Shown here one piece after another: positions 10,586-29,459 of a DNA stretch of 64,000 nt (its first letter is position 1; each line of letters opens with the position of its first letter). The notes under the pieces are model-generated. The model worked only from the letters and a program-made list of their open reading frames with translations. It had not been told where the DNA came from and did not search any database. Position numbers and translations under genes: made by a program. Origin of the DNA: Candidatus Parcubacteria bacterium (lineage in GTDB: Bacteria; Patescibacteriota; Minisyncoccia; SURF-38); contig QZJN01000007.1 in the NCBI GenBank assembly GCA_003599335.1, forward strand, positions 812-64,811, written 5' to 3'.

Positions 10586-11560
10586 TTATTCTTTTAACGG
10601 ATGGTATTTTTGATGGGTTTTTTGGGCGTATCTTTGAGAAGGATGCACGTAACGAGTTGTGGTTTCAAGAGATTCGTGGCCCAATAAAATCTGTATAGCA
10701 GCCGGATTTGCTCCTTGTTCTGCCATATAAGTCGCAAATCCATGTCTCAAAGAATGGGCACTGGTTGGAACATTAATGCCAAGAATCTCTCTATATTCTT
10801 TAATTTTTTCCTGTAGATAACTCGCAGAAACATTTCTGTCTTGGGCTTTAAGACCCCGACCTTCATGAGGAATAAAAAGATACTCAAAATCATCTGTCCT
10901 CATTTTTAGATATTCATTCAGATATTTCATGGCTCTTGGCGTTAAGTAAACAAAACGTTCTTTTTTGCCTTTGCCGCGTATAAAAATTTTACCCTCACGA
11001 TCAATCTGTGATTTATTCACGCTCAACAATTCTGAAATTCTCATTCCGGTAGAAAATAAAACTTCAAGCATGGCTCTGTTACGCTTGGCAATAATTGTTT
11101 TTCTTTCAAGTTTAGTGGGGGATTCAACAAGCTTTCTTAAATCTTCAAATTCGGCGATTTTTGGGATTTTCTTTTCGGTTTTTATCAATTTTATATTTTG
11201 AGGACTTACTGGGGTTCGATAATCCGACTCAATCAAATATTTAAGGTAATTACGCAATGAAGAAAGGTGTCTGTTTATGGAAAAGCTTGAAAGACGCTTC
11301 TGACCCTTAGCTCCAGTCGTTGTTTCCCGATCCTGGGACACCAAATAGGCCTTATAAAGCTCGAGGGTTCTCTTGCTAACCATTTTAAAATCTTTTACGC
11401 CGGCGTCTTCAGATAAAAATCTTTCAAAAACTTTGAGATCGCGCTCGTAATTGTATACCGTTTCTGAAGAATAATTGTTTGTTTGAAGACTTAACAAAAA
11501 ATCATCAAGTAGGGGTAGGTTCATATCTTTAATTATAGCCAAACGACTATCTATCGCCAA
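10586..11560 (-). CDS. xerC: tyrosine site-specific recombinase XerC/XerD family
   Basis: HSLRHGFATYMAEQGANPAAIQILLGHESLETTTRYVH catalytic box. An Arg within the FSTGMRISEL patch is also present. Confidence 0.85.
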   Translation of the reverse strand: MAIDSRLAIIKDMNLPLLDDFLLSLQTNNYSSETVYNYERDLKVFERFLSEDAGVKDFKMVSKRTLELYKAYLVSQDRETTTGAKGQKRLSSFSINRHLSSLRNYLKYLIESDYRTPVSPQNIKLIKTEKKIPKIAEFEDLRKLVESPTKLERKTIIAKRNRAMLEVLFSTGMRISELLSVNKSQIDREGKIFIRGKGKKERFVYLTPRAMKYLNEYLKMRTDDFEYLFIPHEGRGLKAQDRNVSASYLQEKIKEYREILGINVPTSAHSLRHGFATYMAEQGANPAAIQILLGHESLETTTRYVHPSQRYAQKTHQKYHPLKE

Positions 11561-12045: not shown

Positions 12046-12411
12046 TTAACGAAGATATTCCAGTTCGGGACAATTTTTTGCAGCCCTAAACCCGGCAGCT
12101 TCTGCAGCGGCTAAAGAATCAAATAAAACCTTATTTACCTCGCTCATTGCCAAAGCCCCCGGACAATCGGCTAAGTGGTATATTTTTGAGTTCTTATTAC
12201 CCACTATTTGGACCTGCGATGGAGCCTTTGCTTTAATTTCTGATAATTCCGGCGTTATCACCAAAAGGTCTGTTTTCTTTTGAAACCAAAAATTGACCAA
12301 CCCCCAAACCAATAAAACCGAAAAGAAAACAGCGAAAAATACCAAAACAGACTCTTTATTTTTAAATAGCCAGCTCTTGAATATAAGAAAATTCCGTGTT
12401 ATACTCCACAT
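12046..12411 (-). CDS. membrane-anchored protein with Ada-like metal-binding domain remnant
   Basis: N-terminal TM helix. C-terminus KIYHLADCPG...LFDSLAAAEAAGFRAAKNCPE resembles the Ada N-terminal Zn-binding domain (FYANASEALAAGFRPCKRC), but the four cysteines are not all present. Confidence 0.4.
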   Translation of the reverse strand: MWSITRNFLIFKSWLFKNKESVLVFFAVFFSVLLVWGLVNFWFQKKTDLLVITPELSEIKAKAPSQVQIVGNKNSKIYHLADCPGALAMSEVNKVLFDSLAAAEAAGFRAAKNCPELEYLR

Positions 12412-14760: not shown

Positions 14761-15318
14761 TTAAGCACCAGCTTTATAGCTTTGGATCATCTGGTACCTT
14801 GCCCCGCCTCGGCTTAAAAAACTCTCCATTATTTCAAAAGATTTTACAGATATGGTCAAATTCAACGATTCAGATAAAACTTCCTTGGCCTCAAACTCTC
14901 CCCTGCCCATAATTCTTCTGCCAAGAGTAATGTGTGGTTTATAAGGATAATAATCCCTCTTAAAACGGATTCCGGCAAAGTTAAGTTTATTTTCGATTGA
15001 ATCATGAAGTTTCTGAAGTTCTTGAGGTGCTTTGACATGAACCCAAATATAACGTGGGTTTTTGGCTGTTGGGGCTAAGGTTATTTCTTCGAGTCTTATT
15101 TCAAAAGGCTCAATCCCCCTCCACGCTTCTTTTAGACAATCAATAACCTTAAGCAATTGTTCATCCACTAAATACCCAACAAAAACGAGGGTGATATGAA
15201 TGTCGTCTTTTTTTGTCCAACGAAAGGGCATGTCATGCCAGCTGGCGCACAAATCAAAAAGCTTTTCCCGAATCGCTTCTGGAAAATTAATGGCAATAAA
15301 TATCCGATGCTGATTCAT
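14761..15318 (-). CDS. thpR: RNA 2',3'-cyclic phosphodiesterase / 2'-5' RNA ligase (2H family)
   Basis: Two H-x-T-x motifs (HITLVF and HITLGR). Confidence 0.8.
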   Translation of the reverse strand: MNQHRIFIAINFPEAIREKLFDLCASWHDMPFRWTKKDDIHITLVFVGYLVDEQLLKVIDCLKEAWRGIEPFEIRLEEITLAPTAKNPRYIWVHVKAPQELQKLHDSIENKLNFAGIRFKRDYYPYKPHITLGRRIMGRGEFEAKEVLSESLNLTISVKSFEIMESFLSRGGARYQMIQSYKAGA

Positions 15319-15361: not shown

Positions 15362-15377
15362 GTTAACAATTGTTAAC
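15362..15377. promoter_or_regulatory. perfect 16-bp palindrome GTTAACAATTGTTAAC (copy 1)
   Basis: Exact palindrome read from the sequence. It lies between the stop of the HTH gene and the start of thpR. Confidence 0.5.
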
Positions 15378-15411
15378 ATGCATACTTTAATAAATAAAGA
15401 AAAAACCATGC

Positions 15412-15615
15412 TTAAAGTTTGGGTAGTATAAGAGTTTTAAATCCGGCCTCGCCTCGCACGCGTAATTTCATCGGCAATTTATCCGTTGGGATAATAAATG
15501 ACCTTCCAACCTTATAAGCCGTGATGTCACCTCCTTTTATTTTTTTAAATATAGTTATGCGGCTTAAGCTTAGTGATTTTGCCAAGTCCGCAACAGAAAT
15601 AAAACCCTTATTCAT
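15412..15615 (-). CDS. small excisionase-family / MerR-like HTH DNA-binding protein (67 aa)
   Basis: ISVADLAKSLSLSRITIFKKIKGGDITAYKVGRSFIIPTDKL matches the excisionase-type helix-turn-helix fold. Confidence 0.6.
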   Translation of the reverse strand: MNKGFISVADLAKSLSLSRITIFKKIKGGDITAYKVGRSFIIPTDKLPMKLRVRGEAGFKTLILPKL

Positions 15616-15661
15616 AAATTTGATAGATTTTTACCTCAAAAGATTACCATGAACATCGCAC

Positions 15662-15677
15662 GTTAACAATTGTTAAC
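15662..15677. promoter_or_regulatory. perfect 16-bp palindrome GTTAACAATTGTTAAC (copy 2)
   Basis: Exact palindrome 47 nt upstream of the HTH gene start, also in front of the divergent def/fmt-containing transcription unit. Confidence 0.5.
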
Positions 15678-16041
15678 CTGCTTTAGAAAGGATACCATAA
15701 AAGAGATATTTCTTGATAAACGCCCCAATAATCTGTTTAATAGAATGACAACCAACATGCAGGAAAGCTTCAAAAAGATAAAATCGGTTATTTCTGAAAA
15801 AGACAAAAAATCCGATCAAAAAAAGAAAAAGCCGATAAGAGAGTTCCAGGCTGTTGTCGATGATTTACATGGTCTTTTTGGTTGGAGAAAAAAGCGCCCG
15901 TTTATGTACGCGATTGCTTCAAAAATGAAACGCCCGAGAGATCTTTTTGATCTTGGAAAAAACGAGGTCTTTAACCGAGGCCTTCGTGGAGAAAGGGCAT
16001 ATCGGTATATACTTGGGATACTAAAAATAAAGGGTAAATAA
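15670..16041 (+). CDS. hypothetical small basic protein (start uncertain)
   Basis: ORF directly upstream of def. Lysine-rich with no recognisable motif. Several candidate start codons. Confidence 0.3.
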   Translation: MLTCFRKDTIKEIFLDKRPNNLFNRMTTNMQESFKKIKSVISEKDKKSDQKKKKPIREFQAVVDDLHGLFGWRKKRPFMYAIASKMKRPRDLFDLGKNEVFNRGLRGERAYRYILGILKIKGK

Positions 16042-16042
16042 A

Positions 16043-16543
16043 ATGAGTGAAGTTAAACCAATCGTAAAAAACCCAAATCCTGTTTTAAGACAAAAGGCAA
16101 AACTCGTGCCTCCTAAAAAAATTTCCGAAGAAGAATTTACGGAAATCATAGGAAATATGAAATCAACCCTAAACGCCACTCCAAACGGTATCGGTCTTGC
16201 CGCTCCCCAAATAGGTCATTCTTGGAGAATTTTTATCGTAAAAATACCCGAATATGAAGGCGTATTCATAAACCCAGAAATTATGGATATAGGAAAAAGA
16301 ACAACCCTTCTTGAAGAAGGGTGCCTAAGCGTAACCGATACTTATGGCCCGGTCGCAAGGCCAAAAACAATAAAAATAAAAGCCCTGAACGAACAGGGTC
16401 TTCCTTTTAAAGTTCGCGCTAAAGGATTGCTGGCAAGAGTGATTCAACATGAGATTGATCATCTTGATGGAACTTTATTTATAGATAAAGCCGAAAAAAC
16501 CTATCGGGTTGAACGTCAAAACCAAATCACAGGAAATGAATAA
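16043..16543 (+). CDS. def: peptide deformylase
   Basis: GIGLAAPQIG, EGCLS and HEIDHLDG motifs. Confidence 0.9.
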   Translation: MSEVKPIVKNPNPVLRQKAKLVPPKKISEEEFTEIIGNMKSTLNATPNGIGLAAPQIGHSWRIFIVKIPEYEGVFINPEIMDIGKRTTLLEEGCLSVTDTYGPVARPKTIKIKALNEQGLPFKVRAKGLLARVIQHEIDHLDGTLFIDKAEKTYRVERQNQITGNE

Positions 16544-17495
16544 AACTTACGGAACAATTTTTATGGGGACTTCGGAATTTGCAGTGCCAATTCTTAAAAC
16601 TTTGGCAACTTCTGCATCGCTTAAAAAGGCTCACGTTGAAATTGTTGAAGTTATAACAACTCCCGACACAAAATCAGGCCGCGGTTTAAAACTCACTCCC
16701 CCACCGGTAAAAATCGAGGCAGAAAAGCTTGGTCTTAAAATAATTCAACCCCAAACACTTATAGAAAAAGAATTACCTAAAGCCGATCTGATAATTCTTG
16801 CGGCTTATGGCAAGATTCTCCCATCCTGGCTCATTAAACTCCCAACTAAAGGCGCTCTAAATATTCACCCCTCTTTACTCCCAAAACTAAGGGGCGCAAC
16901 ACCCATTCAAACGGCAATCTTAGAGGGTTGGGAACAAACCGGCGCTAGCCTCTTTGTGATGGATGAAAAAATAGACCACGGTCCCGTTATCGCACAAGTC
17001 AATTGTCCAACCGCAGAAAATGAAACTTACACTTCGCTTGAAAAAAAGTTGGCCGAGCTTGGAGCTAAATTATTGGAAGAAAGCTTGCCAAACTGGCTTG
17101 AAGGTAATATCACAGCGAAAACACAGGATGACTCGCAAGCGACACAAACGAGGTTAATTAAAAAACAAGATGGAAAAATTGATTGGAGCAAGTCAGCTAA
17201 AGAAATTGAAAGACAAATACGAGCCTTTGAACAATGGCCAGGTTCATATTGCGTATGGCGCATGACCGATGACAAAGAGTTAACTTTAAAAATTACAAAA
17301 GCAAATCCCTTATACCAACACATAAAAAGCACGCATGATACTGGGAAAATTATGTATGTAAACGGCAAAATTGGCGTGGTAACGGGAGATGGAATATTAA
17401 TGCTGGAACGGGTCCAACCTGCGGGGAAAAAAGAAATGAGCATTGAAGAATTTGCCCGCGGCCACAAAAACTTTATAAATTCAAGTCTAAACTAA
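16536..17495 (+). CDS. fmt: methionyl-tRNA formyltransferase
   Basis: IHPSLLPKLRGATPIQ formyltransferase core plus a C-terminal domain. Overlaps the def stop. Start taken at the internal Met. Confidence 0.9.
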   Translation: MNKTYGTIFMGTSEFAVPILKTLATSASLKKAHVEIVEVITTPDTKSGRGLKLTPPPVKIEAEKLGLKIIQPQTLIEKELPKADLIILAAYGKILPSWLIKLPTKGALNIHPSLLPKLRGATPIQTAILEGWEQTGASLFVMDEKIDHGPVIAQVNCPTAENETYTSLEKKLAELGAKLLEESLPNWLEGNITAKTQDDSQATQTRLIKKQDGKIDWSKSAKEIERQIRAFEQWPGSYCVWRMTDDKELTLKITKANPLYQHIKSTHDTGKIMYVNGKIGVVTGDGILMLERVQPAGKKEMSIEEFARGHKNFINSSLN

Positions 17496-17496
17496 A

Positions 17497-18111
17497 GTGA
17501 AAAACACAATTAAAGGAGTTGTTTTTGACGTTGGGGGCGTACTGATTAAAGAAACGGATAAACAGATTTATTCAAAAATCAGTAGGGAAATAAACATATC
17601 TCACAACAAATTAGAAGAGATTATCGAAAAAAATCTAAGTCCTATAGAGCGCGGATATTGTTCGATTTTGGATTTTTGGAAAAAAATATGTCGAGATTTA
17701 AGGATTAAAAAACCTTCGCCACAAAAACTTGCTAAGGTTTTTTTATCCCACTACCAACGGAGTGCGAAAATTCAAAAACAAGTTTTAGCGATAACGCTTA
17801 AATTAAAAAGGAATTATAAACTCGGAATAATTTCAAACACAATCAATGAACATGCGGCTATAAATAAAAAACGAGGTTTTTTCAAATATTTCCATGTGGT
17901 AATCCTTTCAAGCAAGGTTGGTCTAATAAAACCCGAGAGAAAAATTTATCAGCTCGCAGCAAAACTACTTCGTTTAAAACCCAAAAACATAATGTTCATA
18001 GACGACCAGTCAAAAAACATTGGACCGGCAAAGAAATTTGGTTTTGATGCAGTCAGGTTTACTTCGGTAAAAAACCTAAAAGCTGCCTTAAGGAAACGTG
18101 GAATTAGCTAA
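17497..18111 (+). CDS. HAD-superfamily hydrolase
   Basis: VVFDVGGVLI motif I, S/T motif II and a late DD motif. Confidence 0.7.
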   Translation: MKNTIKGVVFDVGGVLIKETDKQIYSKISREINISHNKLEEIIEKNLSPIERGYCSILDFWKKICRDLRIKKPSPQKLAKVFLSHYQRSAKIQKQVLAITLKLKRNYKLGIISNTINEHAAINKKRGFFKYFHVVILSSKVGLIKPERKIYQLAAKLLRLKPKNIMFIDDQSKNIGPAKKFGFDAVRFTSVKNLKAALRKRGIS

Positions 18112-18170
18112 AAATTAGAAGTTAATATATATTAACCTGCAAATTTTTACTAAATACCAAATACAAAAAC

Positions 18171-19331
18171 CTATCTACCCTTAATCACCAACAAATTTTT
18201 TCCTCCTTGTAGTAAAGTTTCTTCCGAGCCTGTCCAATCGTGCCAGGCTTTTTCAATTGTTTCATAAGAATACCTCAACCCCTCTCCTCTGATTGTCCCG
18301 GGGTCATTAGTTATAAACTCTTTAGTTGTATCATCGTACCCGGTTACAACAACAGTATGATACGGCGGGCCAGGCTGAACAAAATACGGATTGTTGAGCA
18401 GCTTCCCGGCGGCGGGCAAAATAACTGCATATCCTTTTACAATCGCAAGTTTAATATCTTCAAAATCTGCGTTATTTATAATTTCATAGTTTGAAATTCC
18501 ATAAAATCCTTCAAGCAAGCTTGCAACCTCTTTCATATCGGAATTAACATAATGCCCAAAAACTTTCTCTTCATATACAACCATCTTTAAAAGCTGATCG
18601 TCAATTTCGGCTAAGGGAATGGTTTTTTTTCCTTCAAAATACTTAACAGCCATCAAAATTGTTGCTTCCTCACAAGCCTCTTCATATGGATGGTACCACT
18701 TTGCAAATGGAGCCTGCACGGCAAAAGGAACCGAAATACTATGCCTAGCAGGAAGAACTTGGGCATCTAAAGACGCCTTGGCAACCTGACGCATTAAATT
18801 AATCTTAACCGGCTGCCCAACTTCAAATCCGTATAATTTGCTCAAACCGCCGTTTATCTCAAGGGCGTAGCTTGCGCTTTGAACCGGGACATACGTGGCC
18901 GGAGGCAAAGAAGAATCTTTTTGTGCCGGCAAGTTGTGGGCAATTTCAACAATTTTATCTTCGTTTATAAAAATAATATCAAGGTTTATTTTGGTATCTT
19001 GCATCCAAAAAGAATGCGTTCCCGCAGCTTCAAAGACAAAAAGCATTCCCCTATCGTCTGCTAAAGAGACTTGCCCGGAAAGGCCCTTGCTTCTCGTTTC
19101 TGCAGAACTTGCTACCCAGACATTAAACTTTTTGCCCGAAATTTCAACTTCTCCTTGAGCCAGGCTGGCAAGGTTATCTGTTGCTAAAACAGGCTTCTCG
19201 TTTACAACCTCTGGCGTACCAATCTCAATGGTACGTCCCGTTGAAGTAAAAAACTTCTCGTGGTTGTACACGAGATATAACTCTCCCGCCAAAATTAAAG
19301 CCAAAACGCCTATAAATATATTTCTAACCAT
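18171..19331 (-). CDS. secreted protein with DUF192-like N-domain and C39-like peptidase C-domain
   Basis: N-terminal TM or signal sequence. MLFVFEAAGTHSFWMQDTKINLDIIF resembles DUF192 (COG1430). C-terminal HTVVVTGYDD...ITNDPG resembles Peptidase_C39_2. Confidence 0.45.
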   Translation of the reverse strand: MVRNIFIGVLALILAGELYLVYNHEKFFTSTGRTIEIGTPEVVNEKPVLATDNLASLAQGEVEISGKKFNVWVASSAETRSKGLSGQVSLADDRGMLFVFEAAGTHSFWMQDTKINLDIIFINEDKIVEIAHNLPAQKDSSLPPATYVPVQSASYALEINGGLSKLYGFEVGQPVKINLMRQVAKASLDAQVLPARHSISVPFAVQAPFAKWYHPYEEACEEATILMAVKYFEGKKTIPLAEIDDQLLKMVVYEEKVFGHYVNSDMKEVASLLEGFYGISNYEIINNADFEDIKLAIVKGYAVILPAAGKLLNNPYFVQPGPPYHTVVVTGYDDTTKEFITNDPGTIRGEGLRYSYETIEKAWHDWTGSEETLLQGGKNLLVIKGR

Positions 19332-19528
19332 CTCTAAATATAGTTATAACCCAAATCTTTGGTTATTTGAAGTGGTGGCTACTATGATGGTAAGATATGG
19401 ACGGTTTAAAATTTCCAATTTCTAATTTCCAATAAATAACTCAATTTCTCAATTTTTTAAAAGTGTGAGGCTTAAACCGTTGAAAACCGATTGTAAATTG
19501 AGAACTGAAAATTGTAAATTAGTATTTT

Positions 19529-20623
19529 ATGAAACTTGCACTTTATCGCAAATATCGCCCTCAAACCTTTGAAGAAGTCGTTGGCCAGGAACCAATAGTA
19601 CAAACCCTTACCAATGCTTTAAGACTTGGACGTATTTCCCACGCCTATCTTTTCACAGGCCCTCGGGGTTCTGGAAAAACAACCCTTGCGCGTTTGTTTG
19701 CAAAAGCAGCCAATTGTTTTAGCCCAAAAGACGGCCTGCCGGATAATAAGTGCTTAAATTGCCAGCAATATAACGCCGGTTCTCATATGGATTTGATTGA
19801 AATAGACGCAGCTTCAAATAGAGGCATCGATGAAATGCGCGAGCTTCGCGAAGGCACGAAGTTTTCGCCCACCCAGTCAAAATACAAAGTCTTCATAATA
19901 GATGAAGTGCACATGCTTACCAAAGAAGCCTTCAACGCGCTCCTTAAAACTTTGGAAGAGCCGCCCAGCCACATAATCTTTATTCTTGCGACAACAGAAA
20001 TTCAAAAAGTTCCTCCCACGATTATATCTCGCTGCCAGCGCTTTGATTTTAAAAAACTAACTATTGATATTATTATCAAGCGCTTAACTAAACTGGCCAA
20101 GCTTGAAAATATCAAAATTGAACCAGATGCTCTGCGCTTAATCGCGGCCTCTGCCGAAGGGGGCCTGCGCGATGCCGAATCTTTGCTTGATCAGGCCGGA
20201 ATATTGAAAGATAAAACAATAACCAAAGAAGATGTTGAGATGCTTCTTGGACGGCTGGATATAAACCTTGTTTTGGAATTTATTGAATTGCTTTCAAAAA
20301 AAGACACAAAAGGAGCAATTCAATATTTAAACAATCTTATTAGTGAAGGCCACGATATAACCTTGTTTTCAAAAATGCTCGTTGAGTACGCCCGCAAAAT
20401 GCTCGTTGTAAAAATAAACCCTGAAATGCTTGAAAGCATTGCTCCAGAATGCGCCAAAGAACAACAAGAAAAATTAAAGGCGCTTATTGGCACTTTTGAG
20501 TTAAAAGAACTCCAAAACTTTGCAGAAATTTTTGTCGGAGCCAATACTCGGGCGCCCCGCATTCCCCTACCAATATTGGCGCTGGAACTTGCGGTTGTTG
20601 AATTTTTAAGCCCGAAAAGCTAA
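19529..20623 (+). CDS. dnaX: DNA polymerase III subunit gamma/tau (short, 364 aa)
   Basis: HAYLFTGPRGSGKTT Walker A, DEVHML box and SRC motif. The tau C-terminal extension is absent. Confidence 0.85.
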   Translation: MKLALYRKYRPQTFEEVVGQEPIVQTLTNALRLGRISHAYLFTGPRGSGKTTLARLFAKAANCFSPKDGLPDNKCLNCQQYNAGSHMDLIEIDAASNRGIDEMRELREGTKFSPTQSKYKVFIIDEVHMLTKEAFNALLKTLEEPPSHIIFILATTEIQKVPPTIISRCQRFDFKKLTIDIIIKRLTKLAKLENIKIEPDALRLIAASAEGGLRDAESLLDQAGILKDKTITKEDVEMLLGRLDINLVLEFIELLSKKDTKGAIQYLNNLISEGHDITLFSKMLVEYARKMLVVKINPEMLESIAPECAKEQQEKLKALIGTFELKELQNFAEIFVGANTRAPRIPLPILALELAVVEFLSPKS

Positions 20624-20637
20624 AATAAATTACTCTT

Positions 20638-20708
20638 TGCGGGATCGTCTAATGGTAGGACACCAGCCTTTGGAGCTGGGTATCTTGGTTCGAATCCAAG
20701 TCCCGCAG
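20638..20708 (+). tRNA. tRNA-Gln (anticodon UUG)
   Basis: Cloverleaf folds by hand. Acceptor stem TGCGGGA/TCCCGCA with U1-A72. Anticodon arm CCAGC-CTTTGGA-GCTGG. TPsiC arm CTTGG-TTCGAATC-CCAAG. Discriminator G. CCA is not encoded. Confidence 0.8.
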
Positions 20709-20712
20709 CAAT

Positions 20713-21495
20713 ATGCAACTTCTTAGTATCTTAGAACCACCTTCAAAAGAAGCACTCCAAGCTTTTGCCAAGAAAAGAAATATTGATGAGTATTTGGTAA
20801 AAGATTATCACCATCCGCAGGAAGATTTTTTAGTTGTTTCGGAAACCCCTCCTGTCTTTGTTGTTTCTGATGGTGTTACTTTAAACTTCAACAAACTGAT
20901 AGAAACCAAAACAAAATACCCAAACCCCTCCCCCGCCGGGGACGTTTCAAAAATATTTTGCCAAGCCGTTGTCCAAAAAGCCAAAGAAAAGCATGAAACG
21001 CTTGGTGAAGCTGACATTGCGGAAATATTTAAATACGCCAATAACGAAGTTGGAAAATACAACGAAAAAGTCGGCAAAAGCGATATTGCCGGAAACCCGA
21101 CTGGTTATTATGCCGCTACCGGCTCGTTCGTAATTATCAAAAACAATAAGGCTTACTGGGCTTCAATATGCGACTCTTACGTCGCTTTTTTTGATAATAA
21201 AATGAACTCTAAATTTATGTCTTCCGGCTCGTGCAGGCCTTACGCTGTTATCAACGGCGAGGAAAGAATGGTAAATCACGTAGAAAAAGGTGTCTTTAAT
21301 TTAGAAAACGGAGATTATATATTTGTCTTTACCGATGGATTTGCAGATTATGTTAAAAACAAAGATTTTTCAGAATTATTTAAAAATTGGGATAAAAACC
21401 TCAAAGAAAGCATCGCTGAATTTTCAAAAGAGATGAACCTGGCAGACCCCGAAAAATACGGCCACGAACGTTCGCTAATAGCCGTTTTGGTATAA
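20713..21495 (+). CDS. PP2C/SpoIIE-like serine/threonine phosphatase (putative)
   Basis: VVSDGVT and IFVFTDGFADYV motifs, then ERSLIAVLV at the C-terminus. Weak resemblance to PP2C. Confidence 0.4.
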   Translation: MQLLSILEPPSKEALQAFAKKRNIDEYLVKDYHHPQEDFLVVSETPPVFVVSDGVTLNFNKLIETKTKYPNPSPAGDVSKIFCQAVVQKAKEKHETLGEADIAEIFKYANNEVGKYNEKVGKSDIAGNPTGYYAATGSFVIIKNNKAYWASICDSYVAFFDNKMNSKFMSSGSCRPYAVINGEERMVNHVEKGVFNLENGDYIFVFTDGFADYVKNKDFSELFKNWDKNLKESIAEFSKEMNLADPEKYGHERSLIAVLV

Positions 21496-21502
21496 TAAAG
21501 AT

Positions 21503-22393
21503 ATGAACTGGGTTTTACTTTCTTTGCTCGCTCCCCTATTTTGGGCTGTTTCCAATTTTGTCGATAAATACATTCTTGGGAAATACACAAAGAGTATTTA
21601 TGATTTCCTTTTCTTTTCAACAATAACTAGTTGGGCATTATTTCTTATACTCTTCCTCTTTATAGGAATGCCCGAACTAACAATATACTCATGGATACCC
21701 ATCGCAACAGGCGTTATTCTTATTTATTCTTACGGTTTTTATGGAAAAGCGCTTGAACAAGGAGACACCTCATCATTAGTTATCCTTTTTAAACTCATCC
21801 CCGTATTTACAGTAATTTTGGCATTTATATTTTTGGGCCAAGCCTTATCAACTAATGAACTCATCGGGTTCTTTATTGTTTTAATCGGCGCAACCATGGT
21901 GTCGCTAGAAAGAACGAAAAGCTTTTTTATTAAAGGTTTTGGGATGATACTGATAGCAATCGTAATGTGGTCGGTGATGACGCTATTCATAGATTTTGGG
22001 CTGACCAAAATGTCTTTTTGGGATTATTTTTTGCTTGATAATTTGGGTTCGGCTCTCGCCGGGTTAACACTTTTTATTGTGCCGACCATGAGAAAAGAAG
22101 TAATAGATGGAATAAAAACGGCAACGGGCGGTAAATACTTTTGGTATTCGTGGAATAATATGTTGGACTTTTTTGGCCAAATGAGTATTAAAAAAGCTCT
22201 CGCAATTGCTTCATCTGCCGGGCTCGTTACGGTCGTTATGCAAGTACAATCTTTCTATGCAATCGTTATAGGGATATTGCTAACATTGTTTGTGCCGCAT
22301 ATCATCAAAGAAGATATTGCAGTAAAAACTTTGACCAAAAAAGTCATTGGGGCCGCAATAATGTTTTCCGGTGTTTATATATTATTTCGGTAG
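21503..22393 (+). CDS. EamA/DMT-superfamily transporter
   Basis: About ten TM segments in two repeated halves. Confidence 0.5.
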   Translation: MNWVLLSLLAPLFWAVSNFVDKYILGKYTKSIYDFLFFSTITSWALFLILFLFIGMPELTIYSWIPIATGVILIYSYGFYGKALEQGDTSSLVILFKLIPVFTVILAFIFLGQALSTNELIGFFIVLIGATMVSLERTKSFFIKGFGMILIAIVMWSVMTLFIDFGLTKMSFWDYFLLDNLGSALAGLTLFIVPTMRKEVIDGIKTATGGKYFWYSWNNMLDFFGQMSIKKALAIASSAGLVTVVMQVQSFYAIVIGILLTLFVPHIIKEDIAVKTLTKKVIGAAIMFSGVYILFR

Positions 22394-22465
22394 TATGATT
22401 AAACTTTAGAAAATTGTAAGGTAAATCCAAACAATATTAATCAAAAGCCAAAAAGACTATCTCTT

Positions 22466-24055
22466 ATGGAGCTATCTCCTACAGATCTTCTCTCAAAAGG
22501 ATACTTTCCGGAGGAATTGCCACCACCATTTCAAACCGTGGTATTGGGACAAAAGTTTTCAAAATTAGAGAAACAGCTTTCAAAAGTTACCAAAAAATTT
22601 AGGCAAGCTCATGCAAAGTCGAGTTGCATAAAATACACCGCTCCAAAAAGAGGTTTTTCGAGACGCAACTTTAATATTCCAAATCCTTTCCACTTTATAG
22701 AGCTAGTTAGATTACTAAACGACAATAAAACATCGATTTTAAAAATTTTAAAATCATCAGAGTATTCTATTTTTCTAAAAGAAAGGCTTAGGAATGACTG
22801 GAACGAATTTGCAAAGGATAGATTTGTAAAATCACAAGACTACATTTATGAGTTGAAAACTGATATAGCTCGTTACTTTCCAACCATTTATACTCATAGT
22901 ATTTCTTGGGCTATTCACGGTAAAAAAATTGCGAAGTCTAACAAAAGTAACCCGAGCCTCTGGGGCAATGAACTAGATAAAAAGGTAAGAAACCTGCAGG
23001 ATAATCAAACCATAGGAATCCCCGTTGGCCCTCATGTTTCTAGAATAATTGCAGAGTTAATAGGTTGCGAGGTAGATAAAAAGTTGAAAGAGTGGATACT
23101 TAAAGAAAATCTCGATGTTCTTGTTTTTAGATATATTGATGACTACTTTTTATACTTTTCAGAAGAAAGTACAGGAGAAAAAATCTTAAACTCGCTTCAA
23201 TCAATTTTAGACGATTTTAACCTAGAAATTAATCACAATAAAACTGAGGTAACAAAATTTCCCTTTGGTCTAGAGCCTAAATGGGTCAGCGACTTAAGAT
23301 CATTTACCATACGCAAAAAGAACCCCGAACAAATATTCGATATCATGGATTTTTTTAGCATAGCTCTTAACTACACTAACGAACACAAAAATGAATCTAT
23401 CCTAAAATATTCTCTAATAAAACTTCGTAATACAAAAATAATTGATCGAAACTGGGATTACTTCGAAGCTTGGCTACTAAAAATTCTTTTGTATAATACC
23501 AATGTTCTGCCAGAAATACTTAGTTTATTCTTATTAAACCAAGGTAAACTAAACGCAGATAGAATAAAGCAAGCAATTGAAAAACTAATTGTAACAAGCA
23601 TCAAAAAGAAAAATAACTACGAAATCGCTTGGAGTCTCTGGATTGCTAAATCTCTAAAGATTAAATTATCTAGTCAATTAGTTAGTGGGGTGTTTCAATT
23701 AGAAGATCCGATTTCAATTTTAATTGCATTAGATTTAATCAATTCTAATCTAATTATCGGAACCACTAAAAAATATCTCAATTCTTTAGGAAATTCTTTA
23801 AGTCAAAATTCTCTTTTTAACGAATACTGGCTACTAGCTTACGAAAGTAGCATTAAAGGATGGCTAAAAATACCAAAATTAAATTTGCAGAACGACGAAT
23901 TTTATAAAACTCTATACAAAGAAAAAGTGAGTTTCTATGACAGCAAAAAACAAATTTACTATGCTCCTTACAGCAGACGAAAAAAAAGAACTGCTAAGGA
24001 AAAGAATAATTTTATTGGTTTTACCCGCATATTTAAACGTCCATCTTTTTATTGA
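22466..24055 (+). CDS. stand-alone reverse transcriptase, AbiK/Abi-P2-like (abortive-infection class)
   Basis: RT motifs: APKRGFSRRNFNIPNP (motifs 1/2), DIARYFPTIYTHSISWAIHGK (A), GIPVGPHVSRIIAELI (B') and VFRYIDDYFLYF (C, YIDD). NLEINHNKTEV follows as motif D. A C-terminal helical extension of about 250 aa follows. No maturase or endonuclease domain. Confidence 0.75.
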   Translation: MELSPTDLLSKGYFPEELPPPFQTVVLGQKFSKLEKQLSKVTKKFRQAHAKSSCIKYTAPKRGFSRRNFNIPNPFHFIELVRLLNDNKTSILKILKSSEYSIFLKERLRNDWNEFAKDRFVKSQDYIYELKTDIARYFPTIYTHSISWAIHGKKIAKSNKSNPSLWGNELDKKVRNLQDNQTIGIPVGPHVSRIIAELIGCEVDKKLKEWILKENLDVLVFRYIDDYFLYFSEESTGEKILNSLQSILDDFNLEINHNKTEVTKFPFGLEPKWVSDLRSFTIRKKNPEQIFDIMDFFSIALNYTNEHKNESILKYSLIKLRNTKIIDRNWDYFEAWLLKILLYNTNVLPEILSLFLLNQGKLNADRIKQAIEKLIVTSIKKKNNYEIAWSLWIAKSLKIKLSSQLVSGVFQLEDPISILIALDLINSNLIIGTTKKYLNSLGNSLSQNSLFNEYWLLAYESSIKGWLKIPKLNLQNDEFYKTLYKEKVSFYDSKKQIYYAPYSRRKKRTAKEKNNFIGFTRIFKRPSFY

Positions 24056-24099
24056 CATAGCTCAATACTCTTCCTCTCCTAAAATCGTTCATTAACCCA

Positions 24100-24465
24100 A
24101 TGATCTCCACACGCATACTTATTTTTCACACGACACTCCTTATTGGTTTTATAACTGCCTCTGTGGCTTCGTCTGTTATAACAATGGTTTTTCCAGAACT
24201 TTTGCCCGGGAAATATCTTTTGTTTGGCGTGATCCTGCTAACCGGGCTTATCCTTGGTTCCTGGTCATTATTTCGCGGATGCCCTTTCACTGTGTGGGAA
24301 AATAAATATCGCGAACGCGAACGCCCCGGCTCGGCGTATCGCGGCCCCTGCATTGATAGATATATAAAAGAATGGTTCAACGTCCGCCTGCCCGCGCGAT
24401 TGAGCACATTTATACTTCTTGGCTTTCTCATCTTCCCCGCCATAACCGGCCTACTCAATTGGTAA
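24100..24465 (+). CDS. small membrane protein, DUF2784-like
   Basis: Three TM helices with a GCPFTVWEN...R motif. GC is intermediate between the host and the island. Confidence 0.4.
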   Translation: MISTRILIFHTTLLIGFITASVASSVITMVFPELLPGKYLLFGVILLTGLILGSWSLFRGCPFTVWENKYRERERPGSAYRGPCIDRYIKEWFNVRLPARLSTFILLGFLIFPAITGLLNW

Positions 24466-24528
24466 AACACATTCTCCCTCCAAAACAAAAAGCTAAAGCC
24501 CACCAACAACCTCTCAACAACATCGTAT

Positions 24529-24544
24529 GTTAACAATTGTTAAC
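24529..24544. promoter_or_regulatory. perfect 16-bp palindrome GTTAACAATTGTTAAC (copy 3)
   Basis: Exact third copy, at the left edge of the high-GC island. Confidence 0.5.
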
Positions 24545-24641
24545 GTAAGTTTTTTATTCAGGTTTTACTTTTTGTCTCTCCTCCCTCAAAACTCCCCTTT
24601 CATCTCGCCGCAATTTCAACAAAGACTGACAAAAACAAAAA

Positions 24642-24672
24642 GAGCCAATCCCTTTCGGAACTGGCTCTTTGT
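24642..24672 (-). terminator. rho-independent terminator hairpin
   Basis: AGAGCCA...TGGCTCT stem, with T-runs on the minus strand and a weaker T-run on the plus strand. Lies directly 3' of the minus-strand island gene. Confidence 0.5.
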
Positions 24673-24693
24673 TTGAAAGACCGATGTTGGAAA

Positions 24694-25779
24694 CTAGTTG
24701 GCGCCGGCCGCGGCTGCAGCCTGGTCCATTGTTTCTTCCGGAGTTTCCGAAAGATCCAAGGGCGGTGCAGTTTCGTTCGGCCGGAGACGCCGCGTGCGCT
24801 TGCCGGAGTTGACGTGATTCAGCAGCATTTGGTAAAGGATCTCACGCGCCTTGCCACTGGCCGAAGCCAGATTGACAATGTACGGATCGGTTACCGGGAA
24901 GAGCTTGATCTTGCGGATCAAATCCCTCTCCACAAAAAACCGCTTATCACGCCAGAAATCCTGGTGCCTCGAGAACAACGTTGCTAGGCAGATCAGGAAG
25001 GTGTTGCGCAGGTACGCGGCGCCTTCGCGAATCGTCACAATGCGGATACCCCAGCACTGATCGAGTATGTCAGAGAAGGTTCGTGCGTTCTCGCGCAGAA
25101 CATTCGGGCCTGTAACCTCCATGATTTTCTGGAGGCCACGAGCCAACTCGTCAGTTTTGCTCCCGCGGCCAGGGCCAAGGTGAGAGTGCAGCGCGCCAAC
25201 CGCCTTACAGAAAGTCAAGGCAGTGATCAACTCGCCGTGCTTCATCCGCTGGCTCCAGGAAATCTTGCCGTGCATGACGAACCCGCGATCGCGAGTCGTC
25301 AAGCTGAACAAGTGAGAGACAACAGGGAACTCGTGCTGGAGATTGCGGAGCAGAATGTTGGGAGAAAGCTTTGTCCGCTCGGTGTTGAGGATGCGGAAAC
25401 GGTCCCGTTCCCACTCCTCGGTTGTATTGAAATGAACCGTGCAGCCCAGGCGTGGCGACTTGCCAGTACCCAGCTGCATCAGACGCATCGCCGCGGTCAC
25501 CCGCTGCAGACCGTCGATGATGAAAACATCGTTCTTGAGGTAGAAAGCCCCGTCGCGCTCCATAAAATCCCCTCCCCGCATCCCAAGTTCAATGTCGGGA
25601 ACGGTGCTCTTTTGGAACGCTTCGATGAGCGTGTTGATTTTGGCCAACGGCAGAACCTCGCGCTGATAGGGAGCAGTCTGCAATTGGTGCAACGAACCCG
25701 GGTCAACCTCACCTCGGAGAATAATGTCTTTCTTCTCCTCGCTGAGAGCAGCCCGTACTACCTTAACTGAATCGCGCAT
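24694..25779 (-). CDS. ParB/Srx-fold protein with DGQHR/DUF262-like motif (IIDGLQRVTA)
   Basis: 361 aa, GC-rich codon usage. IIDGLQRV resembles the DndB DGQHR and DUF262 DGQQR(LTT) ParB-like motifs. The SD (AAGGAGG) sits 11 nt upstream. Confidence 0.4.
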   Translation of the reverse strand: MRDSVKVVRAALSEEKKDIILRGEVDPGSLHQLQTAPYQREVLPLAKINTLIEAFQKSTVPDIELGMRGGDFMERDGAFYLKNDVFIIDGLQRVTAAMRLMQLGTGKSPRLGCTVHFNTTEEWERDRFRILNTERTKLSPNILLRNLQHEFPVVSHLFSLTTRDRGFVMHGKISWSQRMKHGELITALTFCKAVGALHSHLGPGRGSKTDELARGLQKIMEVTGPNVLRENARTFSDILDQCWGIRIVTIREGAAYLRNTFLICLATLFSRHQDFWRDKRFFVERDLIRKIKLFPVTDPYIVNLASASGKAREILYQMLLNHVNSGKRTRRLRPNETAPPLDLSETPEETMDQAAAAAGAN

Positions 25780-25877
25780 AAAGCGACGATCCTCCTTGTG
25801 AAGATTGGCTTTGACTCCCTTATGCCATATTGGCTGGGATGGTAAGCCAATTTTTTTATATCAAACAAAAACTAAAG

Positions 25878-25911
25878 TGTCAAGCAATTTTCTGTCTCCC
25901 GTGGCTTGACA
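25878..25911 (+). promoter_or_regulatory. inverted repeat TGTCAAGC-N18-GCTTGACA overlapping a TTGACA -35 hexamer
   Basis: Exact 8-bp inverted repeat in the divergent promoter region between the DGQHR-like gene and the three-ORF unit. Confidence 0.35.
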
Positions 25912-25959
25912 GAATTATATTTTTATACAATAATCTTTCCAGACTTTAAGGAGGTACAC

Positions 25960-26295
25960 ATGGAGGAAAAGCTCTTTTTGCTCAAGAAGAAACACAAACA
26001 CGAACTGGCGGCCGTTCCCGGAGGAGACCACCCAACCTTTGATTCCGACGAGTTCGTTGTCGGCACATCTCCCGAAGAAGTGATCGATCGGATTTTCAAT
26101 GAGGAGAAAGCCAAACGCGACGAGTGGGAACGCAAGATGGAAACCGCGGAAACCCAGGATGTTGTAGATGACCCCATCGGAACTTTTCCGCCGGTTCTCC
26201 CCGTGCGCAAAGAAGAATGGAAGGCCGAGGAAGTGAAAGTTGATGGCTACACCATCATCCTGGAAAAACAACCCGAACCCTCTCCTGCGACCTGA
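25960..26295 (+). CDS. hypothetical acidic protein (111 aa)
   Basis: Strong SD (AAGGAGG) 7 nt before the ATG. GC-rich codons. No recognisable motif. Confidence 0.45.
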   Translation: MEEKLFLLKKKHKHELAAVPGGDHPTFDSDEFVVGTSPEEVIDRIFNEEKAKRDEWERKMETAETQDVVDDPIGTFPPVLPVRKEEWKAEEVKVDGYTIILEKQPEPSPAT

Positions 26296-26326
26296 TTTAA
26301 ATCGCTCTCTGAATCTGGAGGAAACC

Positions 26327-26545
26327 ATGGAAAATCGCCAGGTTGTTTTTGTGGAAGCGATTATCAAAGACGAAGAACTCAAAGCTGGCCAAAACCCGCG
26401 CATTCGGCCAAACGAACTTCTGGAACGTGGCCTTGAAGCTCGCCGCGCCGAGGGATGGTGCGATGTTTTTGCCCTTCCCTTGCCCACGCCCGATGGTGGC
26501 CAAAAATGGGCCATCGTTTTCCACCGCCATAACCATCTTCACTAG
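26327..26545 (+). CDS. hypothetical small protein (72 aa)
   Basis: GGAGG SD upstream. Same transcription unit as the preceding ORF. Confidence 0.4.
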   Translation: MENRQVVFVEAIIKDEELKAGQNPRIRPNELLERGLEARRAEGWCDVFALPLPTPDGGQKWAIVFHRHNHLH

Positions 26546-26642
26546 CCTTCGCAGAAAAGCTCAAAGCTTAGTACGCGAGGGCTTTTCTGTTTATTGACAG
26601 GATAACACTTATATGTTAATTAAGTTTTATACAGGAGGTGTC

Positions 26643-26936
26643 ATGTTTCAGTTCTTCAAAGACTGGCGACGCAGGTGGCGGGAGAAAAAGCGGCGACGGC
26701 TTTTGGACGAACTTGCGTGGGTGGAAAGTCAAATCTCCAGCATCACGCAGGAAAACGCCCAAACCAAAAAGCTCCATACGCGCCTGGCCGAGGAAAGCGC
26801 CGTGGTTTTTGACCAGGAGAGAGACTCTCGTTTTGCGGCTCGTTCAAGCGAGCGCGCCCAGAATGCAATCCTCCTTGGCCGGTACCAACGCGAAAAAAAG
26901 CTCATTGAGCGAGAGCTCGCTTCCCTCCCCGCCTAA
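26643..26936 (+). CDS. hypothetical basic/coiled-coil protein (97 aa)
   Basis: AGGAGGTG SD. Arg/Lys-rich N-terminus followed by a heptad-like helical region. Confidence 0.45.
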   Translation: MFQFFKDWRRRWREKKRRRLLDELAWVESQISSITQENAQTKKLHTRLAEESAVVFDQERDSRFAARSSERAQNAILLGRYQREKKLIERELASLPA

Positions 26937-26951
26937 AGCACAGCAGCAAAA

Positions 26952-26993
26952 GGCCCGGACCGATCTAACCAATCGCGCCGGGCCTTTTCTTTT
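26952..26993 (+). terminator. terminator-like hairpin GGCCCGG...CCGGGCC followed by TTTTCTTTTCTT (repeat copy A)
   Basis: 7-bp GC stem with a long loop and a T-run. Closely related to the copy at 28004-28046. Confidence 0.45.
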
Positions 26994-26994
26994 C

Positions 26995-27023
26995 TTGACA
27001 TAAGTAAATTATCATTTTATTAT
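26995..27023 (+). promoter_or_regulatory. sigma70-type promoter (TTGACA, 17-nt spacer, TATTAT)
   Basis: Near-consensus hexamers 42 nt upstream of the PyrD-like gene start. Confidence 0.45.
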
Positions 27024-27064
27024 CGCAACATCCTGAAAGACGGGAAAACTACAAGGAGGAGACG

Positions 27065-27988
27065 ATGGAGATCCCATCGGCAAAGTTCGGAGCTCTTGAA
27101 TACACGCCAGCTCTTTCCAACGGCGCAGGAATGATCAAAAAGCTTGAGGATGTGCGGGAAATGGCCCTCTCGGCCGCCGGCGCCATCGTCGTCGGCTCCA
27201 TCACCCTCAAGGACAGGCCTGGCAACACAGGCAACACGTTTTGGGTCGGCCAAACCGGCTCAATCAACTCGCTTGGCATCCCCAACCCCGGCAAGGAATA
27301 CTACCGGCAAAACATCCATTTGATGGTTGGTGTCGCCCATGCTCATGGCAAGAAACTCATCGTCAACGTGGCCGGCTTCCAACCAAACGAATTTGGCGAA
27401 CTGGCCCTCTTGGCCTTTGATTGCGGGGCCGACGCGGTTGAGCTCAACTTCGGCTGCCCCAACATCTGGGACGATGGCACCCAAAAAGGCATTATCAGCT
27501 TTTACCCGGATGTTCTGGGCGAATCGCTGGAAGCCGTGAGACGAGCCGTTGGCGTTGGCTCCAACATCATCGCTAAGGTTTCCCCTTTTTCCAACCCAAT
27601 ACAACTCAAGGAAATCGGCGGCGTGATCGTGAGCTCAGGAATCGTTTCGGCCATTACGGCCATCAACACCTTCCCCAACGCTTACGGCGAGTACGAAAAC
27701 GGCCGGCCGGTCATTGATCCGGGCGGAGGACTTGGCGGCTTTGCCGGCGCCGGGCTCAAACACATTGCCCTTGGTCAAGTGAAGCAGTGGCGCGCCCTGC
27801 TGCCTCCCGAAATTGCCATCATTGGGGTTGGCGGTATTTCCAGGGGCAAGGACATGGCCGAGTATTTCCGTCATGGCAAGGTTGCGGCCGTTCAGGTCGT
27901 TACGGCGCTTTTGCGCAAGGGCCACATGGACCCCAACGCCTTGAGCACCATTCTCATGGAATACGCCGAGCTGCCGGATGCAGCGTGA
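27065..27988 (+). CDS. dihydroorotate dehydrogenase-family (PyrD-like) FMN TIM-barrel oxidoreductase
   Basis: NSLGIPNPG, ELNFGCPN and C-terminal IIGVGGISRGKDMAEYFRHGKVAAVQVVTALL match class-1 DHOD signatures. SD AAGGAGGAGAC. Confidence 0.65.
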   Translation: MEIPSAKFGALEYTPALSNGAGMIKKLEDVREMALSAAGAIVVGSITLKDRPGNTGNTFWVGQTGSINSLGIPNPGKEYYRQNIHLMVGVAHAHGKKLIVNVAGFQPNEFGELALLAFDCGADAVELNFGCPNIWDDGTQKGIISFYPDVLGESLEAVRRAVGVGSNIIAKVSPFSNPIQLKEIGGVIVSSGIVSAITAINTFPNAYGEYENGRPVIDPGGGLGGFAGAGLKHIALGQVKQWRALLPPEIAIIGVGGISRGKDMAEYFRHGKVAAVQVVTALLRKGHMDPNALSTILMEYAELPDAA

Positions 27989-28003
27989 AGTTCCACAACT
28001 AGA

Positions 28004-28046
28004 AGGCCCGGAGCCAAAATTAACTTTTGGCGCCGGGCCTTTTCTT
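28004..28046 (+). terminator. terminator-like hairpin GGCCCGG...CCGGGCC followed by TTTTCTTTTT (repeat copy B)
   Basis: Same stem, and a partly conserved loop, as the copy at 26952-26993. It marks the right edge of the GC island. Confidence 0.45.
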
Positions 28047-28071
28047 TTTATTTAATTTTCGTACAATAACA

Positions 28072-28868: not shown

Positions 28869-29459
28869 ATGGCTAAAATAAACAATAAGTTAATATATAT
28901 TAACTTACGTGATTTTTTCAAATCAGAAAAAAATCAAAACGAAATAATCACCTCTATAAAAAATGGCGGTATTATAATTTACCCAACAGATACTATTTAT
29001 GGCATTGGCTGCGATGCAACAAACAAAAAAGCTGTTTTACGCTTAAATAAGGCAAAACAAAGAAAGCCTGGCCAACCTTTCTCCCTAATTGCACCGTCAA
29101 TAAACTGGATTTACAAACATACAACCATAAAGAAGTACGCCATAAAATATTTAAAGAGATTGCCTGGTCGCTATACATTCATTCTCAAAGCCAAACCAAG
29201 TATTAAACATTTAGTAACCAAAGGCGCTGTCGGAGTTCGTATTCCAAAACATAAATTTACGGATATTATCCGCAAACACAAAATTTTATTGATCACAACC
29301 TCGGTGAATTTATCCGGCCAGCCTCCGGCTAGAAGCGTGAGAGAAATGCCGGCTCGCCTTAAAAAAGCAGCTTCTCATATAATTAACGCCGGACAGTTTG
29401 GAGGAAAACCATCAACAATAATTGATCTAACCGGCCAAAAGCCAAAAAAGATTAGATAA
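28869..29459 (+). CDS. tsaC: L-threonylcarbamoyladenylate synthase (YrdC/Sua5 family)
   Basis: IIIYPTDTIYGIGCDATNKKAVLRLNKAKQRKPGQPFSLI is the YrdC signature. Confidence 0.85.
   Translation: MAKINNKLIYINLRDFFKSEKNQNEIITSIKNGGIIIYPTDTIYGIGCDATNKKAVLRLNKAKQRKPGQPFSLIAPSINWIYKHTTIKKYAIKYLKRLPGRYTFILKAKPSIKHLVTKGAVGVRIPKHKFTDIIRKHKILLITTSVNLSGQPPARSVREMPARLKKAASHIINAGQFGGKPSTIIDLTGQKPKKIR

Follow-up and report, generated by a model that had tools for sequence, protein, structure and literature searches.

Three copies of a palindrome as probable operators of a Doc-less, antitoxin-related winged-HTH protein in Candidatus Parcubacteria

Introduction

In type II toxin-antitoxin systems, autorepression by the antitoxin is an established rule, and the genes of lambda CI (operators OL/OR) and TP901-1 CI (operators OR/OL/OD) exemplify repressors flanked by operators that cooperate through looping. 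BldC of Streptomyces, a small winged helix-turn-helix (HTH) protein, oligomerizes head-to-tail on direct repeats. To our knowledge, almost no pairs of a transcription factor and its site are known from bacteria of the Candidate Phyla Radiation. Here we analyze a 64-kb stretch of a Candidatus Parcubacteria genome (64,000 nucleotides, positions 812 to 64,811 of contig QZJN01000007.1, assembly GCA_003599335.1), which we call the window and to which all coordinates refer unless another locus is named, and in which a 16-bp palindrome occurs three times, with two of its copies enclosing a gene for a 67-amino-acid (aa) winged-HTH protein. We propose that the palindromes are operators of this protein, which appears to be kin to antitoxins but to have no toxin partner.

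Several groups of described proteins resemble the window protein in part. The partners of the toxin Doc, known from the Phd-Doc system of phage P1, were surveyed by Makarova et al. (2009), who list Phd, AbrB/MazE and YhfG, and also a truncated-MerR-PIN pair, but not an HTH_17-Doc pairing (PMC2701414). Small winged-HTH proteins of the excisionase (Xis)/MerR-like type bind repeated sites and some of them repress transcription; Gp36 of mycobacteriophage D29 is reported to bind GC-rich direct repeats, and the sites of RdfS are reported to have no consensus motif (PMC12266134, PMC11963761). Orphan (solitary) antitoxins are documented in genome surveys (PMC7192599, PMC10790755).

Results

The 16-mer GTTAACAATTGTTAAC has exact matches at 15362-15377 (copy 1), 15662-15677 (copy 2) and 24529-24544 (copy 3), to none of which a strand is assigned. 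An earlier note on this DNA had reported the three copies as beyond chance and as lying between genes in every case, and on both counts our analysis agrees with it: when up to three mismatches to the 16-mer are allowed, the window contains five matches where 0.69 are expected, a number that 0 dinucleotide-preserving shuffles reached, and the open reading frame (ORF) map places three of three copies in intergenic DNA. The two HpaI sites and the central MfeI-like site to which the note drew attention are likewise present, as two HpaI hexamers and a central CAATTG within the 16-mer. Just outside the 16-mer, A at -2 and T at +2 are found at all three copies, so that the common motif is effectively 20 bp long, and copy 1 with these flanks forms a 20-bp perfect palindrome, ATGTTAACAATTGTTAACAT. 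Further similarity is found between the left flanks of copy 2 (AACATCGCAC, 15652-15661, on the HTH-proximal side; repeat family D2) and copy 3 (AACATCGTAT, 24519-24528), which have 8 of 10 bases in common (AACATCGYAY).

We estimate a probability of roughly 0.78 that these three palindromes are cognate operators of the 67-aa winged-HTH protein encoded between copies 1 and 2, which would be a Doc-less member of a clade recognizing GTTAAC-N4-GTTAAC. The gene (15412-15615, minus strand; locus tag C4553_01715 of a Candidatus Parcubacteria metagenome-assembled genome (MAG)) belongs to the excisionase/HTH_17 class. Its product passes the NCBIfam model TIGR01764 for the excisionase family DNA-binding domain (29.8 bits against a cut-off of 28.8) and stays below threshold for Pfam HTH_17 (17.8 bits against 27), a family that full-length relatives reach with 34-38 bits. 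The AlphaFold (AF2) model of the protein, with a confidence (pLDDT) of 83, shows a winged HTH and, C-terminal to it, a beta-hairpin, and the closest PDB structures to it are Pukovnik Xis, RdfS, BldC and RacA (Foldseek probabilities 0.95-1.0; TM-scores of 0.52-0.73, normalized by target length). Among structures, the top sequence match of the protein is 4j2n.

Two independent starting points, one a DNA sequence and the other a protein alignment, connect this type of protein to this type of site. A search for the exact 16-mer with one genome per species yielded at least 118 loci, and while most of the 118 listed are single matches in unrelated taxa and look like chance, 21 of them have an HTH gene whose product is about 50% identical to the window protein (tblastn) and whose start lies 8-100 nt from the palindrome. 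These 21 span Omnitrophota, Saccharibacteria, several Parcubacteria lineages, Nitrospirae, Elusimicrobiota and Gammaproteobacteria, and because the loci were picked on 16 bases of DNA only, the association of site and HTH gene is not an artefact of selection. Conversely, for 80 metagenome loci picked by protein alignment only, we inspected the 220 nt upstream of the HTH gene and found GTTAAC-N4-GTTAAC in 68 (43 perfect, 25 with one hexamer mismatch), with the exact 16-mer of the window in 8 of the 80. The hexamer pair is situated 13-108 nt before the HTH start codon (29-124 nt when counted from the matched HTH region), and in the remainder of these loci, with up to 1.5 kb of either flank covered, no pair was found, be it in genes, downstream or further upstream. 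Additional GTTAAC hexamers usually accompany the family pair at -19/-18 and at +28/+29.

The relatives recovered in this way are 85-93 aa long and have a conserved C-terminal segment (..KKTVKEYGETLKLLGKE) that is presumed to bind a toxin. Directly following them is a gene of about 141 aa with an HPFQNGNKR motif that passes the cut-offs of Pfam Fic and of NCBIfam DOC_P1 (TIGR01550), and such a Doc gene is present in 76 of the 80 protein-selected loci, the remaining four of which end before it could appear. This placement of Doc directly downstream identifies the 85-93-aa HTH proteins as predicted antitoxins, and the family is, on sequence grounds, of the type II toxin-antitoxin kind, its antitoxin being built on an excisionase-type HTH. 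Clustering at 90% identity gives at least 4,934 protein clusters for it (E <=1e-5), whose database labels are only 'excisionase family DNA-binding protein' or 'helix-turn-helix domain-containing protein', and our literature search found no papers on the pairing of an HTH_17/excisionase-type antitoxin with Doc, or on the 16-mer. The central 4 bp of the Doc-linked sites drift, the center being shared by 41% of protein pairs of at least 90% identity and by 8-10% below 70% identity, and fewer than half of these sites have a self-complementary center.

Compared with the Doc-linked antitoxins, the window protein is 40-58% (about 50%) identical over residues 2-52 and has retained the recognition helix (LSRITIFKKIK, against ISRIAVFKKIK in the family), but it does not have their C-terminal segment and ends instead in DKLPMKLRVRGEAGFKTLILPKL. 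No Doc-like sequence was found in the whole 64-kb window by tblastn with 18 Doc partners (best E 0.07), nor does the window, the vicinity of copy 3 included, contain a second HTH gene or HTH remnant. By these alignments the 67-aa protein is a toxin-less, shortened relative of the Doc-antitoxin family. The earlier note had named it as the obvious regulator of the palindrome, a proposal to which the site and protein searches across phyla lend support; what the note had missed is the likely kinship with Doc antitoxins, the loss of Doc and the differing C-terminus. The core of the earlier reading, an operator for the adjacent HTH protein, is well supported as far as sequence comparison reaches, and to it our analysis adds the link to an antitoxin family, the operator architecture shared across that family and the short subfamily of bracketed genes described below.

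An exhaustive profile-free search returned two kinds of nearest relatives of the window protein, namely tandem-HTH proteins and a few short proteins that share its tail. The short subfamily consists of five genes (the window gene, P0151 of 71 aa, P0157 of 68 aa, P0169 of 64 aa, and gene B of the contig L199), its members are 62-71 aa long with the C-terminal tail ELPxK(I/V)x(I/V)R, and full-length matches amount to only 4 proteins in 5.8 billion. A single-protein search of genome contigs found no relatives of the window HTH, a k-mer protein search returned the window HTH itself only, and no relatives were found among viral contigs. We read the surrounding DNA for four of the five subfamily genes (window, L199 genes A and B, and L200), leaving out P0157. 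All four are bracketed, with one site 46-93 bp upstream and another 18-34 bp past the stop codon, whereas a downstream second pair occurs in 0 of the 61 Doc-linked loci with enough room for one. Recurrence of the bracket in four of four genes makes the site-gene-site layout a conserved feature of the subfamily.

The modules differ in detail. In the window, the upstream site lies 46 bp before the ATG and the other 34 bp past the stop codon, both with the center AATT, and the extra copy, copy 3, is 8.9 kb off. L199 gene A has sites at 93 bp and 27 bp with the center ATAT and no extra copy; L199 gene B has them at 46 bp and 26 bp with the center GCGC and an extra copy 109 bp further upstream; and L200 has them at 51 bp and, with one hexamer mismatch, at 18 bp, with the center AATT and no extra copy. 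The distance from site to site is 277-331 bp across the four genes and 300 bp in the window. Every bracketing site is self-complementary in its center, the center is identical within a module, and the hexamers are symmetric bar the one mismatch of L200; the two L199 paralogs differ from each other in this respect, with ATAT twice and GCGC three times. A scan for the bracket pattern returned two unrelated loci with no HTH gene, and in L202, the one checked, there is no ORF between the sites. Recognition of the hexamers alone is an insufficient explanation for such identical, self-complementary centers within modules; either the tail specific to the subfamily may read the center, or the copies may have arisen from one another by duplication or recombination. 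A speculative further idea, which we hold to be unlikely, is that a short Xis-fold protein and symmetric sites make up a minimal self-bracketed module, set apart from the toxin-antitoxin relatives, in which either the C-terminal beta-hairpin reads the center, giving orthogonal pairs, or the sites serve to move or invert a tiny cassette by recombination, copy 3 being one that is empty.

As to how the operators might work, the recognized unit would be two GTTAAC hexamers one helical turn apart (GTTAAC-N4-GTTAAC), which is probably the hallmark operator of a very large excisionase-type HTH clade made up mostly of Doc antitoxins. An extended -10-like element is apparently embedded on both strands of each site, six of six window flanks reading TGTTAACNT, so that bound protein would occlude RNA polymerase. 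In the wider family, an outer hexamer reads TGnTAACnT, the shape of an extended -10, in 37 of 67 loci, and TTGACT/A, which makes a good -35 hexamer, is found 17 bp upstream of a hexamer's TAACNT in five loci (L003, L039, L060, L151 and L200).

Copy 2, the proposed autoregulatory operator, lies 46 bp upstream of the HTH ATG, a spacing equal to that of L199 gene B and inside the operator range of the Doc-linked family, 13-108 nt upstream. On the plus strand it reads TGTTAACCT, which is extended -10-like, and it is divergent from an ORF at 15670/15745 that is followed by def and fmt. Protein bound here would repress the promoter of the HTH gene itself, and the divergent ORF-def-fmt unit might be repressed with it. 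Copy 1 is situated 34 bp past the HTH stop codon and 43 bp ahead of the ATG of thpR (15318, minus strand), where binding might repress thpR or block read-through into it, and protein at the two bracketing sites may interact, so that the gene between them is looped out. Copy 3 would add one more site, whose role is uncertain. The most likely function, judged from this arrangement of motifs, is autorepression at promoter-embedded operators. With regard to the earlier note's placement of copies 1 and 2 in promoter regions, the part concerning copy 2 upstream of the HTH gene holds, while copy 1 as a thpR promoter element is not a conserved feature, since only two of the four short-subfamily genes have a co-directional gene downstream; what is conserved for copy 1 is its location just past the HTH stop codon.

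Several observations weigh against the operator interpretation. A strict sigma-70 scan, which calls for -35 and -10 hexamers, finds no promoter around any copy, and the outer half-sites that family operators typically show at -19 and +29 are missing from the window sites. The Shine-Dalgarno-like GAGG of the HTH gene is poorly placed, about 20 nt upstream of the ATG. Copy 3 sits between the convergent ends of a DUF2784 gene (24465) and a 361-aa gene (24694), a setting with no obvious promoter and nothing obvious to regulate. A co-directional gene follows the downstream site in just two of four cases (thpR in the window, a DNA glycosylase gene in L199), so that control of thpR is not conserved, and the bracket layout itself rests on four genes, P0157 not being among them.

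Alternatively, the palindromes could be crossover or attachment sites, with the HTH protein as an accessory recombination directionality factor (RDF). In this scenario, which we consider quite improbable, the site-gene-site unit would be a mini-cassette that has integrated or can invert, and copy 3 would be a scar or an unoccupied site. The Xis/RDF-like fold of the protein would suit it, but RDFs, RdfS among them, are reported to double as ordinary regulators of transcription (PMC11963761). Identical sites do bracket four of four short genes, every short-subfamily site is perfectly symmetric (the one L200 hexamer mismatch aside), and the N4 center is constant within a cassette yet drifts in the Doc-linked family even at high protein identity (41% shared at >=90%); against these features stands the promoter-proximal position of the same hexamer pair in thousands of HTH-Doc operons, in which no second copy turned up at the 61 loci that could hold one. 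The unit is moreover only about 300 bp long with the HTH gene as its sole coding content, and it has no target duplication and no conserved cassette ends past the 16-mer. A Xer-type (XerC/D-like) tyrosine recombinase-like ORF, assigned from its translation alone, is present at 10586-11560 (minus strand), 3.8 kb from copy 1, whereas no recombinase gene adjoins the cassette in the window or in L199 and L200, the contigs of the latter two being short. The location of copy 3 in a variable region, with a defense-associated reverse transcriptase (DRT) gene and a high-GC block, would also fit recombination.

Two other accounts strike us as very unlikely. One takes the sites for functionless, decaying relics of HTH-Doc promoters and the 67-aa ORF for a cut-down antitoxin pseudogene, for which the missing Doc gene and antitoxin C-terminus, the frequency of toxin-antitoxin modules in variable islands and the existence of partly decayed modules (L021, L089 and L193, with Doc or HTH cut down) could be cited. 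The ORF is nevertheless intact, and four other proteins share the conserved, distinct C-terminal tail that it encodes; the three sites are identical at 16 of 16 positions and retain the conserved -2/+2 flanks; the bracket layout repeats in independent contigs; and perfect symmetry would not persist in relics. The other, to which we give just as little credence, sees in the sites RNA or DNA hairpins (terminators or cruciforms) or targets of HpaI-type restriction-modification. At copy 3 there is indeed a plus-strand hairpin (24526-24556), 61 nt past the DUF2784 stop codon, in which a 9-bp stem of -7.8 kcal/mol is followed by GTTTTTTATT with the U run GUUUUUUAUU, although a consensus terminator scanner made no call, the stem having fewer than three G-C pairs; copies 1 and 2 and the downstream copies of L199 and L200 have no U tract, and the stems are weak throughout (-4.9 to -11.7 kcal/mol). 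The earlier note had thought a restriction-modification target equally conceivable, given the two HpaI hexamers in each site. That suggestion finds no support. The count of GTTAAC in the window (13 observed against 13.6 expected) shows no depletion, on which ground HpaI restriction pressure was rejected, and the ORFs next to the three copies, to which the search for restriction-modification genes was confined, include none. Neither hairpins nor restriction would explain the tie to a single HTH family across phyla.

Around the bracketed gene, two transcription units could be affected. The LigT/2H phosphoesterase gene thpR (14761-15318, minus strand; Pfam LigT_PEase E 2.6e-20) is co-directional with copy 1 and downstream of it, and by this position it is a possible regulated target. 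The divergent unit (15670-17495, plus strand) comprises an ORF that starts at TTG 15670 or ATG 15745 and ends at 16041, followed on the ORF map by def (16043-16543, plus strand) and fmt (16509-17495, plus strand); we infer that it is a possible target of copy 2. ThpR was also considered as a replacement 'toxin' and ruled out, the downstream neighbor being different at every short-subfamily locus (a DNA glycosylase gene or convergent genes). On the L199 contig, which is 3.1 kb long, the two paralogous short HTH genes (region 1542-3049 of L199) stand on either side of a gene for a 3-methyladenine DNA glycosylase, and at the upstream ATAT copy the perfect palindrome is as long as 32 bp. Also present in the window is a gene (12046-12411, minus strand) whose small product is membrane-anchored and has an Ada zinc-binding domain.

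Copy 3 lies in a GC trough beside a high-GC block. It had been placed at an island boundary by the earlier note, which is correct in that a rise in GC starts about 60-100 bp to its right, but the boundary is approximate, as the 3' half of the DUF2784 gene on the left is also GC-rich. No credible small ORFs were found around it, just implausible peptides of 22-49 aa. Its hairpin could act as an intrinsic terminator for the DRT/DUF2784 unit. For the copy as a whole we see several possibilities: one more operator besides the other two, a terminator by co-option, or a site that is a relic or empty. The DRT gene (22466-24055, plus strand) encodes a 529-aa reverse transcriptase matching the PADLOC models Drt6 (E 2e-158) and Drt4 (E 7e-154); it has an unusually low GC content (about 30%), starts 1.8 kb downstream of a tRNA-Gln gene (20638-20709), the only Rfam match over 14.0-29.5 kb, and is followed by the DUF2784 membrane protein gene. 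The high-GC block (about 24200-28000, 50-59% GC vs about 38% elsewhere) looks like a foreign insertion. It contains the 361-aa gene, whose product has a DGLQR motif and no family match, two small ORFs of unassigned function, and a dihydroorotate dehydrogenase-like gene (27065-27988) that is flanked by two alike GC-rich terminator-like hairpins (..AAGGCCCGG..CCGGGCCTTTTCTTTT; 26966-26993 and 28021-28048; family D1).

The window has a second class of palindrome, AAGTTAATATATATTAAC, with two exact copies, one at 18119-18136 between the convergent ends of a HAD-family gene (17497-18111) and a 386-aa gene (18171-19331), the other at 28887-28904 within the initial codons of a TsaC/Sua5-like ORF. A kindred sequence, GTTAATATTTATTAAC, is found at 63327-63342 within coding sequence, and the looser pattern GTTAA-N6-TTAAC has six matches in the window against 0.11 expected. 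The sites at 18121, 28889 and 63327 were dropped as sites of the regulator, given that they differ at inner hexamer positions conserved in the HTH family and that two of them are in coding sequence.

Variants of the HTH domain and of its operon were noted at other loci. In an Omnitrophota MAG (L036, 2530-3643), the same HTH domain is fused N-terminally to a cysteine synthase-like protein (359 aa), with an exact palindrome 18 bp upstream and no Doc gene, another case in which the HTH-operator pair is reused with no toxin-antitoxin module involved. The Doc genes of L021, L089 and L193 are cut down or barely detectable, and in L021 the HTH is shortened as well, a pattern suggestive of repeated toxin-gene decay within the HTH-Doc family. 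Proteins with 3-8 tandem HTH copies (P0122-P0147) are the top matches of the window protein, and upstream of one tandem-HTH gene (L201, 2712-3483) there are a GTTAAC-N4-GTTAAC pair and one more hexamer. Four domains set against the four hexamers of the family operator suggest one HTH domain per hexamer.

Discussion

The locus supplies a concrete candidate for a regulator-operator pair in Candidate Phyla Radiation bacteria. Through it, a putative operator, consisting of a GTTAAC pair that is usually joined by outer hexamers at -19 and +29, can be defined for a family of at least 4,900 clusters. Labels of the 'excisionase family' appear to hide Doc antitoxins, and many genes could be re-annotated on this basis. 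In the Doc-less short subfamily, an antitoxin-type DNA-binding domain and its site would have been reused as a free-standing regulatory module. The site-gene-site layout of this module is unusual, and looping, roadblocking and recombination are all conceivable for it.

Among known systems, Phd-Doc of phage P1 is matched by the relatives of the window protein, which are encoded directly upstream of Doc-family toxins and have a dyad-symmetric site upstream of the operon. Unlike Phd-Doc, however, they have an excisionase-type winged HTH (HTH_17/TIGR01764) as their DNA-binding fold in place of Phd/YefM, the operator sequence differs, and the window gene has neither a Doc partner nor a toxin-binding C-terminus. 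BldC, Gp36, RdfS and Pukovnik Xis have the same fold and size as the window protein, which in its model appears to differ from them by an extra C-terminal beta-hairpin; and while the sites of Gp36, RdfS and BldC are of other kinds, that of the window is a sharply defined, self-complementary hexamer pair forming a perfect palindrome. By analogy, the identical operators on both sides of the regulator gene and the third, distant site would resemble the arrangement of lambda CI and TP901-1 CI, a likeness of layout alone, as the protein families are unrelated and the spacing in the window is only about 300 bp. The window protein also resembles orphan antitoxins in being a homolog of an antitoxin DNA-binding domain with no toxin partner, but unlike orphan antitoxins that are leftovers it has a conserved tail and a site layout of its own.

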